Assembly: GCA_947625435.1 (NCBI GenBank)
Contig: CANQOI010000002.1
Coordinates: 1,043-65,042 of the forward strand
DNA length: 64,000 bases
DNA from: an uncultured Clostridia bacterium
GTDB taxonomy: Bacteria; Bacillota; Clostridia; UBA1212; UBA1255
Direction of reading: 5' to 3'
A program made the position numbers and the translations under genes. Below the pieces are notes generated by a model. The model worked only from the letters and a program-made list of their open reading frames with translations. It was not told where the DNA came from and searched no databases. Shown here in pieces: positions 2,687-4,276 of this stretch; positions within the stretch are counted from its first letter, which is position 1, and each line of letters opens with the position of its first letter.

Positions 2687-2977
2687 TTATATGTTTCTTC
2701 TTTTGTATTTTGCATTAGAATAATCCGTTAGCTTTTCCATTCGTTCCTTCAGCGCGTGTATATTTTCAGATGCGAACAAGGCGATCGACACCTTTAATGT
2801 GTTCAATCGGCGGATATATTCCGTCAATTCATTTTTATACTCGTCGTCTACTCCGGCCAACATTTTTTTCAGGTCAGATTCAAATCTTGCGGCGGTAATG
2901 GAAAATTGTTCGGAAAAATCATTTAAAATGCCGCCTGCCGTATTCAAAGAATCCGTTGTGACGTGTATTTTGTCCAT
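2687..2977 (-). CDS. 96-aa all-helical protein; candidate immunity/partner or WXG100-like protein, last gene of the operon
   Basis: Lies 15 nt downstream of the 427-aa gene. Helical heptad-rich sequence with no TM segment. Confidence 0.4.
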   Translation of the reverse strand: MDKIHVTTDSLNTAGGILNDFSEQFSITAARFESDLKKMLAGVDDEYKNELTEYIRRLNTLKVSIALFASENIHALKERMEKLTDYSNAKYKRRNI

Positions 2978-2992
2978 AAATTATCTTCCCCC

Positions 2993-4276
2993 TTATGTAT
3001 TTGATAACCGTGCCATCATTTCGGAAAAGCATCGATAACTTTCTCCGAAATTGGACTTTACAGCATCCAAAAAATCGGCATCATTCGCTGCATAAGCCTG
3101 AAAGCACTGAGCAAAGAACCGGGAACTCGGGCTGAAAGAAGCCGTTGGAAAATTTGGACGATTTTGAATCTTTCCACCTTTTAATTCTGCAGAAAAACCA
3201 TTTGCGATTTTTTGAATGTTTTTGTCTGCAGATTGTAAATTTCTTGCAATTTCTTTGCCCAACACTTTATCCATGTAAAGTTTATCCTCGGACTGATCCA
3301 ACGCATACAGCCTTCGACCGATGTGAAGCAAAATCTGCCGATCAAAATCAGGATCAGCCGGGTTTAATCCGATAATTTTCAACGTCCTTCCACTTGCGTC
3401 TTTTTGGTAGCCAAACCCGAAATATGCGTTCAGCAATATGATATTGCCCATTTTTTCCATGATGGCGTCACGAAAATCTACATGCAGACCCCGCATGGCG
3501 TGATATAATGCCTCTCTTACCTGTGGGGCATATGGGTTATAGATTCTGTACGCCATGCGTTTCCCGGATTTAAAATCAAAAGTTCCCGATTTTAACCGAT
3601 ATGTTTTTTGCTTGAACTGTGCGTTCGCAGAAGCACGGAAAACAGAAGAATAAGAAACAAAATCAGAGTTTTCATCCGCTGCAAAGGCCGAATCTGCCAT
3701 GTAAAAATCGATTGATGAAAGATAATTTTGCAGACAGGTCAAGACAGAGACTAACGATTGGTTGTTATATGTGATTTCCTCTGCCAAACCGGAGTTTAAT
3801 TTTTTGACTTCTGCGGCGTTTTTCTCTAGAACGTCTATCATCGCAGATAATGCCTTTTGTAATTGCTCGAATTTTTGCTTTTTTTGTTTGATTTCTTTTT
3901 GTAGTTCAACGGATGACTGATAGGACTCAGTCAAGACATCGTACATTTGCCGTGCTTCTTCCATTTTTCTCAAGCAGGCGGATGCGACATCACGGCTATC
4001 TGCGTTATTATACTGCTCGGAATAATACGCCCGTCCAGAGACCGTTTCATCTATGTTGTATTTGATCGACCATGATTTTTTCTGCAAAGATTCATCAAGT
4101 TCAGCAAGCTGAATCATTTGTGTTTCAAGCTTTTCTTTTGCGTCTTCTACAAAGCCTATCATCTCATTGATGTTTGACAATACAGCTTTTGATACAACTA
4201 TCATTTGATTGTATTGATTTTCAGTTTCTTTTGTAAAAGACATAACATAAGAAACTACAGTTGACAGTTCACTCAT
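2993..4276 (-). CDS. 427-aa protein with a ~200-aa helical N-terminal region and a ~220-aa globular C-terminal domain; candidate polymorphic-toxin/LXG-like effector
   Basis: Domain architecture and position (after four small helical proteins, before a small ORF) mimic LXG toxin cassettes. No recognisable catalytic motif. Start overlaps the upstream gene by 8 nt. Confidence 0.4.
   Translation of the reverse strand: MSELSTVVSYVMSFTKETENQYNQMIVVSKAVLSNINEMIGFVEDAKEKLETQMIQLAELDESLQKKSWSIKYNIDETVSGRAYYSEQYNNADSRDVASACLRKMEEARQMYDVLTESYQSSVELQKEIKQKKQKFEQLQKALSAMIDVLEKNAAEVKKLNSGLAEEITYNNQSLVSVLTCLQNYLSSIDFYMADSAFAADENSDFVSYSSVFRASANAQFKQKTYRLKSGTFDFKSGKRMAYRIYNPYAPQVREALYHAMRGLHVDFRDAIMEKMGNIILLNAYFGFGYQKDASGRTLKIIGLNPADPDFDRQILLHIGRRLYALDQSEDKLYMDKVLGKEIARNLQSADKNIQKIANGFSAELKGGKIQNRPNFPTASFSPSSRFFAQCFQAYAANDADFLDAVKSNFGESYRCFSEMMARLSNT

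Follow-up and report, generated by a model that had tools for sequence, protein, structure and literature searches.

Type VII-dependent polymorphic toxins are a main weapon of Gram-positive bacteria, and to our knowledge work on such toxins has been limited almost wholly to bacilli, staphylococci, streptococci and mycobacteria. Here we describe a locus that points to a compact, mobile type VII relative in strictly anaerobic gut Clostridia. It lies in 64,000 nucleotides (nt) of contig CANQOI010000002.1 from an uncultured Clostridia bacterium; this whole stretch is hereafter called the window. At the center of the locus is a gene for a protein of 427 amino acids (aa) followed by a 96-aa open reading frame (ORF), which an earlier inspection of the letters alone (the sequence-only reading) had taken for a polymorphic toxin and its immunity protein. 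On balance we favor a different assignment: the 427-aa protein probably serves as large substrate to an export locus that is type VII-like, compact and horizontally mobile, and is not a member of a toxin-immunity pair.

The closest comparison is with the LXG polymorphic toxins that belong to T7SSb, one type VII secretion system (T7SS) variant, and their Lap/WXG100-like partners, as in TelA-LapA3-LapA4 (PMC10801868), and with EsaD and EsxB, EsxC and EsxD (PMC10653861). Ten T7SS variants, T7SSa-j, have been distinguished, with a membrane-bound ATPase of four predicted NTPase domains and, in most variants, a YukD-like ubiquitin-fold protein (Garrett, Higginson and Palmer 2024, PMC11217815). A Table 1 footnote in Zhang et al. 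2012 (PMC3482391) also speaks of 'mobile versions of T7SS' with solo WXG domains and a YueA-like ATPase, in which the middle one of three HerA/FtsK domains is alone active; the footnote lists proteobacteria, planctomycetes, cyanobacteria and bacteroidetes, and large substrates or toxins are not mentioned in it.

A type VII-like operon

The 427-aa gene is the seventh and the 96-aa gene the last of eight co-directional, tightly packed, low-GC genes on the minus strand. In operon order these encode an FtsK-gamma protein, an EssC/EccC-like ATPase, four WXG100-like proteins of ~90 aa, the 427-aa protein and the 96-aa protein:

8751-9851, minus strand: 366-aa protein with an FtsK-gamma winged-helix domain at residues 221-281 (PF09397, E=6e-22)
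5427-8714, minus strand: 1095-aa EssC/EccC-like FtsK/SpoIIIE ATPase (PF01580, E=1.6e-29)
5130-5411, minus strand: w93b, small helical WXG100-like protein (Pfam WXG100 E=0.063, TIGR03930 E=0.015, sub-threshold)
4849-5118, minus strand: w89, small helical protein (orthologues in all loci, 47-79% identity)
4547-4837, minus strand: w96, small helical protein (orthologues 43-74% identity)
4269-4550, minus strand: w93a, small helical WXG100-like protein (Pfam WXG100 E=0.0027, sub-threshold)
2993-4276, minus strand: 427-aa ORF
2687-2977, minus strand: 96-aa ORF (p96), a conserved fifth small helical protein of the system

Ahead of the gamma-domain gene stands a promoter-like site (9908-9880, minus strand) whose -10 element is extended. 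An 8-nt overlap joins the 427-aa gene's start to the stop of w93a, the 93-aa gene upstream; w93a itself probably starts at an internal Met, which would give a protein of ~88 aa. The 427-aa and 96-aa ORFs are real and 15 nt apart, as the sequence-only reading had them; the peptide strings that it quoted are found in the translation, and the spacing contains a strong Shine-Dalgarno ribosome-binding site (RBS), AAGGGGGAAG. Full-length homologues of the 427-aa protein (22-50% identity) occur with the same neighbors in at least eight independent metagenome or metagenome-assembled genome loci, and the gene is therefore not a chance ORF. Below, related loci are designated by L numbers and related proteins by P numbers.

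The best full-length matches of the 1095-aa ATPase are TIGR03924 EccCa (E=1e-34) and TIGR03928 EssC (E=2e-30). It has a coiled-coil N-terminus and one Walker A motif, GGTGSGKS at residue 509, in the middle module; each of the five orthologues checked likewise has a single Walker A. The protein contains no hydrophobic 19-mer and thus no transmembrane (TM) segment, and a hydrophobic segment is absent from all eight operon proteins. Among four full-length orthologues, three likewise lack a TM segment and the fourth, in L006, has one marginal segment (1.74 against a threshold of 1.7). The orthologues in L004, L006, L010 and L013 share with the window protein a variable coiled-coil N-terminus of 110-270 residues.

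Two of the four small proteins upstream of the 427-aa gene gave WXG100 matches, both sub-threshold (the E=0.063 and E=0.0027 above; cut-off 27.3 bits). Orthologues of w93b are present in all loci, those of w93a (84-86 aa) stand immediately upstream of the large substrate in all loci, and w89 is the best conserved of the small proteins; w96 and w93b are paralogous (hhalign 95.7%). The gamma-domain gene, first in the operon in the clade of the window protein, has an orthologue at the equivalent position in L004, and was seen in the window and L004 only. Other genes lie upstream of the ATPase in L010 and L013, and the L006 contig ends near the ATPase and is uninformative on this point.

Set beside the LXG/T7SSb systems, the cluster has the same layout of the large protein (a long helical N-terminal domain, then C-terminal cargo), ~90-aa helical-hairpin genes directly upstream, an EssC-type FtsK/SpoIIIE ATPase in the operon and, in a sister clade, toxins (nucleases, ADP-ribosyltransferases (ARTs) and peptidases) that are swapped by recombination, each with a downstream immunity gene. 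Unlike them, it has four upstream partners and a fifth small helical protein downstream, an ATPase without membrane anchor and, in the window protein's own clade, a fixed cargo with no immunity gene; the N-terminal domain matches neither the LXG family in Pfam nor a solved LXG sequence.

With T7SSa-j the cluster shares an FtsK-related, EccC/EssC-like ATPase, WXG100-like small proteins and helical-domain candidate toxin substrates encoded beside small partner genes. The ATPase differs from every described T7SS ATPase in being TM-less, with one Walker A and a coiled-coil N-terminus; YukD, EssB, EsaA and FHA are undetected, and a gamma-domain protein and a membrane-protein family with a shared ~90-aa N-terminus are present instead. 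On ATPase architecture, the cluster is not a member of T7SSa-j. Compared by description with what the footnote in PMC3482391 gives of the mobile T7SS, it is similar in its single mid-protein P-loop, its WXG-like proteins and its mobile context: the window copy sits in a low-GC island, and integrase, serine recombinase, Mob or transposase genes lie beside relatives (a phage integrase in L010, a serine recombinase and Mob_Pre in L006, and a transposase helix-turn-helix (HTH) gene in L015).

An N-terminal hairpin shared with polymorphic toxins

The 427-aa protein divides into three parts:

3716-4276, minus strand: residues 1-187, N-terminal antiparallel helical hairpin, an LXG-analogous targeting domain (AlphaFold2 (AF2) model and exhaustive profile search)
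3617-3715, minus strand: residues 188-220, low-complexity linker, variable in length between homologues (predicted local confidence, pLDDT, <30)
2996-3616, minus strand: residues 221-427, domain X, 207 aa, alpha/beta, no assigned fold

The helical and globular halves that the sequence-only reading had described are borne out by the AF2 model, in which two long helices, spanning residues 2-90 and 95-187 and reaching a pLDDT of ~90, precede a mixed alpha/beta region. Conserved positions of the N-terminal domain (alignment A5) are M1, S9, Y22, Q53, K159, E167, N171 and Y185, with E167 and N171 lying within a DExxYN motif.

An exhaustive profile search with the 427-aa protein, over 1.84 billion representatives, retrieved 58 proteins. 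Eight clusters match over the full length (P0003-P0007, P0009, P0010 and the query's own cluster); these form the X clade. Another ~35 clusters, 318-650 aa in length, match profile positions 1 to ~230 only, and their C-termini include Colicin-DNase/WHH, AHH, Endonuclea_NS_2, ADPrib_exo_Tox and Peptidase_C39_2 domains, some having a HEFGH zincin motif. Because these N-only relatives carry toxin C-termini, we read the hairpin as the targeting module of a polymorphic-toxin superfamily. Word-indexed homologue searches turned up no more than a near-identical copy and a single homologue at 44% identity, one to three relatives per search even with alignments. No relative of the 427-aa protein was found in plasmid and phage collections, where ATPase matches were distant only. 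Scanned against Pfam, NCBIfam and PADLOC, the 427-aa and 96-aa proteins yielded coiled-coil noise only. Run against PDB sequences, a profile of the whole 427-aa protein retrieved nothing specific, and the N-terminal-domain profile retrieved no LXG structure and likewise nothing specific.

The contigs of P0025 (ART), P0018 (HEFGH), P0036 (AHH), P0030 (C39) and P0017 (WHH) carry a cassette that matches the window's. Its order is a TM-less ATPase, genes of 93, 89, 91 and 84 aa, the toxin and an immunity-like gene; L010 has two additional small genes. The toxins and the genes that follow them are:

L005: ART toxin, next gene 134 aa
L006: HEFGH toxin, next gene 69 aa
L013: WHH toxin, next gene a SUKH_6/SMI1 immunity protein
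L010: AHH toxin, next gene 238 aa
L012: C39 toxin, next gene an unrelated 96 aa

In this toxin clade unrelated C-termini are attached to N-termini with 88-98% identity to one another, from which we conclude that the polymorphism is driven by recombination. C-terminal swapping is confined to this sister clade. The toxin-bearing loci also hold further modules, in which an N-terminus of the w96 hairpin type is fused to another toxin and followed by a small gene; judged by these fusions, the system seems to export both long-hairpin and WXG-fused toxins. The spans of this second substrate class, with the modules in them, are:

L005, 3872-5766: L005_3872 and L005_4627 (C39)
L006, 6821-7975: L006_6821
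L010, 11779-14331: L010_11779 and L010_13225
L013, 11702-12733: L013_11702 (C39)

In every locus except the window, p96 is followed by a gene for a membrane protein with a common N-terminus. Its ~90 residues (MTFSE...) are conserved across loci, and the ectodomain varies (LRR_5, PDZ or other; the LRR_5 fusions are L006_8570 and L010_14653). Intact genes of this family start MTFSE, MTFTE or MTFAK in L001, L004, L014, L015 and L017.

The closest full locus is L004, and its neighborhood looks like a defense or conflict island. Its upstream flank (876-3009) encodes a KilA-N protein and a 363-aa reverse transcriptase, and its downstream flank (12636-19796) a SUFU-family protein, an SNF2 helicase, a MoxR AAA+ protein and a DUF2201 VWA-metallopeptidase.

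A fixed C-terminal domain without an immunity gene

Domain X behaves differently from the C-termini of the sister toxins. Across the X clade (nine clusters in this comparison), identity is 19-54% in the N-terminal and 24-54% in the C-terminal part; both fall together with no sign of swapping, and the C-terminal half is, if anything, the more conserved. No fusion of domain X to any other N-terminus was found among the 1.84 billion representatives. In eight independent loci (the window, L001, L003/L004, L009, L014, L015, L016 and L017) domain X is followed directly by a p96 homologue with nothing between, and none of the X-clade loci has an immunity gene after domain X. The polymorphic-toxin layout proposed by the sequence-only reading therefore holds in part: the protein has a T7SS-type effector architecture and an N-terminus homologous to toxin-bearing proteins, but its C-terminus is not polymorphic in the X clade.

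That the domain has no assignable motif, as first noted, was confirmed: Pfam, PDB sequence and fold searches were all negative. Scanned with Pfam, 12 domain-X sequences had no consistent match, and none matched an ART family even at E<=1; the ART paralogue P0025, a positive control, matches PF03496 at 5e-31. The alignment has no conserved R-S-E (R/STS/E) triad, and the loose resemblance to an R-S-E ART in the sequence-only reading is left unsupported. Invariant or near-invariant positions are Y226, F288, Y290, G296, I301, G303, H318, H321 and E342 and, in the C-terminal part, S385, F387, F388, C391, Y395, S413, Y414 and F417; the conserved polar positions are the Tyr, His, Glu, Ser and Cys residues among these, together with K407. 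Position 321 is His in the relatives and Arg in the window copy only (HIGRR, residues 318-322, nt 3311-3325), and this copy also departs conservatively at three further, otherwise invariant columns of the domain.

One lead comes from the HEFGH minimal zincin sisters (P0018, P0029 and P0054), which themselves give weak MPTase-PolyVal, Peptidase_M78 and DUF6782 matches. Domain X is similar to them in size, occupies the same cassette slot and ends in a similar three-helix tail (FFAQCFQAYAANDADFLDAVKSNF against IFADLFAIYSTNDPSTVAFVERHF), the last 36-41 residues resembling the sister-toxin tail (hhalign P=0.002; whole-domain probability 14%). In the predicted model the H318 helix comes after a beta-hairpin, as in zincins. 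Unlike the HEFGH zincins, domain X has no HExxH motif (H-[IVAL]-[GAC]-H-x in relatives, HIGRR in the window); the catalytic Glu is absent in all, its position being I, V, A or L throughout. The third ligand is not conserved either, the tail's candidate being a variable Glu, and the His helices do not align in hhalign. By these sequence similarities domain X may be a catalytically degenerate relative of the sister HExxH toxin domain, which we regard as a weak lead only.

Two motif assignments were considered and dropped. A thermolysin-like spacing of H318, H322 and E342 fails at position 322, which is variable (H, Y, R, G or Q). The 'HIGH' string of the relatives was set aside as a nucleotidyltransferase motif, by eye, on its spacing and position within the domain.

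Our committed reading is that domain X is not a classical interbacterial toxin. Because it is fixed, unique to the X clade and immunity-less, it may be a conserved effector or adaptor by which the producer's own cytoplasm is not harmed, a reading to which we give somewhat less than an even chance within the overall model.

p96 accompanies the system and not the cargo

Homologues of p96 (96-98 aa) were found in L001, L004, L006, L009, L010, L013, L014, L015, L016 and L017, that is, in every related locus that is long enough (phmmer E=3e-26 to 7e-9; hidden Markov model E=1e-30 and 8e-25), with the common pattern MD+I.V...EN..AI.DR...Y.+RN. Three of these loci, L006, L010 and L013, have no domain X and carry HExxH, AHH and WHH toxins. 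There p96 lies 1.6-2.6 kb downstream of the main toxin, after the toxin/immunity genes and the extra modules, and always directly before the membrane-protein gene. Although p96 has no Pfam WXG100 match at E<=1, it aligns with the w89 hairpin family over 76 columns (hhalign probability 73%, P=3e-5) and is thus a distant paralogue. It differs from its sister-clade copies (phmmer E=7e-9 to 6e-15) to an extent that appears, from these scores, to be of the same order as in the weaker core components (~1e-8 for w93b, 8e-8 to 3e-14 for the toxin N-terminus).

Since its homologues keep a fixed position in loci with unrelated toxins, we infer that p96 is a core component of the system, machinery and not an immunity protein. 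The sequence-only reading's assignment of the 96-aa ORF as cognate immunity gene is thereby abandoned: the homologues accompany unrelated toxins, are not adjacent to them and have a paralogue in w89.

A truncated copy, probably acquired horizontally

The whole operon lies in a low-GC island at ~2600-10200 (GC 0.40-0.44, against ~0.50-0.55 in the flanks). Genes in the island have a GC content of 0.39-0.45, and a GC content at third codon positions (GC3) of 0.38-0.50, the 427-aa gene having 0.39. Elsewhere the window holds housekeeping-type ORFs of 235-900 aa, by eye DapF-, aminotransferase-, PurH- and PBP1A-like. A low-GC operon standing amid such ORFs has the look of a chromosomal island gained by horizontal transfer. 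A search between 1.9 and 12 kb showed no integrase, no tRNA-like target and no direct repeats on the flanks.

Similarity to L001 runs ~17 codons beyond the 96-aa stop and ceases near 2630, where the membrane-partner gene is reduced to a stump:

2614-2673, minus strand: membrane-partner remnant, 19 codons, MMFSEWMLK... (similarity to the MTFSE.. N-terminus)

The locus is 3'-truncated, and no other copy of the membrane-partner family is present in the 64-kb window. Taken together, the truncation and the H321R change suggest, weakly, that this copy is decaying or reliant on partners encoded elsewhere; it is probably export-defective unless these are supplied in trans.

Proposed role and competing explanations

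By analogy with LXG-Lap and EsaD-EsxBCD, the 190-residue hairpin and the small hairpin proteins encoded upstream would form a rod-shaped bundle; the ATPase would recognize the rod and hand it to the membrane proteins encoded after p96; and domain X would be the exported cargo. The 427-aa protein is, on this proposal, LXG-effector-like in role and not a member of the LXG family.

Several results weigh against the export assignment. LXG (PF04740) is matched neither by the window protein at E<=1 nor by ten relatives at E<=0.01, and Foldseek with the N-terminal domain returns generic antiparallel coiled-coil hairpins only. Every Pfam WXG100 match of the small proteins is sub-threshold, the EccCa and EssC scores of the ATPase are far under the curated cut-offs, its membrane anchor is missing, and no YukD/EsaB, EssB, EsaA or FHA homologue was detected at the locus. 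For all members of the system, export is predicted from gene content. The mixed alpha/beta model of domain X has a pLDDT of only 60, and its searches, as said, assigned no fold. A missing adjacent immunity gene is no proof of non-toxicity, and domain X could be a toxin that acts in the envelope and is neutralized by the downstream membrane proteins, or one that is inactive in the cytoplasm.

A bolder form of the export assignment, which we advance tentatively, is that the cluster encodes a type VII-like machine, so far undescribed, that belongs to gut Clostridia; within it the 427-aa protein would found a non-polymorphic, immunity-less branch and domain X would be a new fold. Its parts may be a soluble, single-P-loop EssC-like ATPase, five small helical families (the four upstream WXG100-like hairpin families and p96) and an LXG-analogous domain absent from Pfam. 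Membrane proteins with a shared cytoplasmic N-terminus may replace EssA/B and EsaA, and domain X may be a structural or adaptor element, or an effector against host, phage or matrix.

The main rival to the large-substrate assignment, unlikely in our estimate, is that domain X is an antibacterial toxin acting outside the cytoplasm, for example in the envelope, with protection from the membrane-anchored proteins after p96 (142-169 aa, or those with a PDZ or other ectodomain) or from a gene elsewhere in the genome. The 427-aa protein fills the toxin slot of the cassette, membrane proteins always come after p96 (with a lipoprotein added there in L001), and the near-invariant H318, H321 and E342 could, from their conservation, form a catalytic or metal site. 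Yet the same membrane family occurs in loci with cytoplasm-acting nucleases that own immunity genes, and so looks like machinery; domain X shows no swapping, diversification or fusion to another delivery domain among the representatives searched; and the window genome retains the gene without any such membrane protein.

An improbable alternative is an intracellular conflict or defense module on a mobile element, in which a soluble ATPase of the FtsK/HerA type is joined by a gamma-domain protein that binds DNA and by helical adaptors, with the 427-aa protein as an intracellular effector. The TM-less ATPase matches the PADLOC defense models SspH, mad8 and HerA through its P-loop domain, the gamma-domain protein comes first in the operon, L004 has KilA-N, reverse transcriptase, SNF2 and MoxR/VWA neighbors, and the window copy persists without membrane partners. 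These PADLOC matches are confined to the generic ATPase core, however, and the best full-length matches are EccC/EssC; every intact locus has membrane proteins with the common cytoplasmic N-terminus; and the sister arrays of toxin, immunity (including SUKH) and orphan-module genes are the signature of exported interbacterial toxins.

We consider it very improbable that the 427-aa protein is a polymorphic toxin with the 96-aa ORF as its cognate immunity gene. The two genes are tightly adjacent and in the same order in all eight X-clade loci, and the superfamily does contain such pairs. Against this stand the p96 copies of L006, L010 and L013, far from the toxin and in the company of no domain X, the kinship of p96 with w89 and its core-like degree of divergence; the pairing survives only if an orphan immunity gene sits at one fixed position in three unrelated loci.

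The sequence-only reading had further pointed to an ADP-ribosylglycohydrolase (ARH) gene ~0.5 kb away, which is confirmed:

1048-2223, plus strand: ARH gene, 391 aa (PF03747, E=1.5e-38)

In Tre1-Tri1-like logic, an ARH is the antidote to an ART toxin. That domain X is an ART with this gene as its antidote is scarcely credible. In its favor, the ARH gene is near (463 nt separate it from the 96-aa ORF's end) and weakly similar to NCBIfam Tri1 (E=1e-6, far under the cut-off), genuine C3-like ART toxins (among them P0025) exist in the superfamily, and L010 also ends with an ARH gene. Against it, none of the 12 domain-X sequences matches an ART family, the gene lies on the opposite strand in convergent orientation, outside the homology breakpoint near 2630 and with a GC of 0.57 and GC3 of 0.67, against 0.39-0.45 for GC in the island and 0.39 for GC3 in the 427-aa gene, its kinship with the L010 ARH is remote (E=3e-4), and in the true ART locus L005 the downstream gene encodes an unrelated 134-aa protein.

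Implications

The value of the locus lies chiefly in the unrecognized targeting domain and its cassette, and in the unusual non-polymorphic, immunity-less branch. The literature that we searched, which does not take in all journals, contains no description of the cassette, the N-terminal domain or domain X. As the new targeting domain is not recognized by current profile libraries, the nucleases, ARTs and peptidases that it carries are invisible to LXG-based surveys of microbiomes. A recombining toxin clade and a fixed, immunity-less clade on one chassis amount to a natural experiment, which can reveal roles of the helical domain and small partners that are independent of toxicity. In annotation, a small ORF should not be called an immunity gene by default when it comes right behind a toxin-like protein; a comparison of loci with different cargo settles the question.

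Neighboring genes

The ARH protein has its domain at residues 1-228, with a C-terminal extension of ~160 aa. An ARH without a partner toxin might protect broadly against the superfamily's ART toxins. An exact look-up of the ARH protein, meant to extend the contig, returned no match. The L010 gene (20436-21476) ends an AHH toxin locus; the shared ARH endings are a coincidence worth a second look and not evidence for an ART/ARH pair. Between the membrane-partner stump and the ARH gene lie ~400 bp of unassignable non-coding DNA (2224-2630), in which a strong bidirectional hairpin at 2247-2286 terminates the convergent ARH gene.

On the far side of the ARH gene, at the left end of the window, lies a further fragment:

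4-360, plus strand: BspA-type LRR_5 protein, C-terminal fragment (PF13306, E=3e-14), extending past the window's left end

The fragment resembles the ectodomains that membrane partners carry in sister loci. In L010 the order is p97, LRR_5, further genes and ARH, and the block from LRR_5 to ARH in the window was considered as an inverted piece of the system. This is unsupported: the ARHs are barely related, the intervening genes of L010 have no counterparts in the window, and the composition differs. That such an inversion moved the membrane-partner gene is conceivable but likewise not supported; the N-terminus of the LRR_5 gene lies outside the window.

Two small regions complete the picture at the margins. 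At the island's right edge, a shortened DUF3990 protein (10748-11092, minus strand; 114 aa against a 152-position profile, E=2e-28, in two pieces) is divergent from a gene for a Cro/C1-type HTH protein (11314-11625, plus strand); the pair may be what is left of a small module, either toxin-antitoxin-like or from a mobile element. A 64-aa ORF (449-643, plus strand) without a Pfam match, situated between the ARH gene and the LRR_5 fragment, has a good RBS and contains an internal repeat (..TDFYGHKLGFYRKN.. / ..TDFYGRKVGKGD..).

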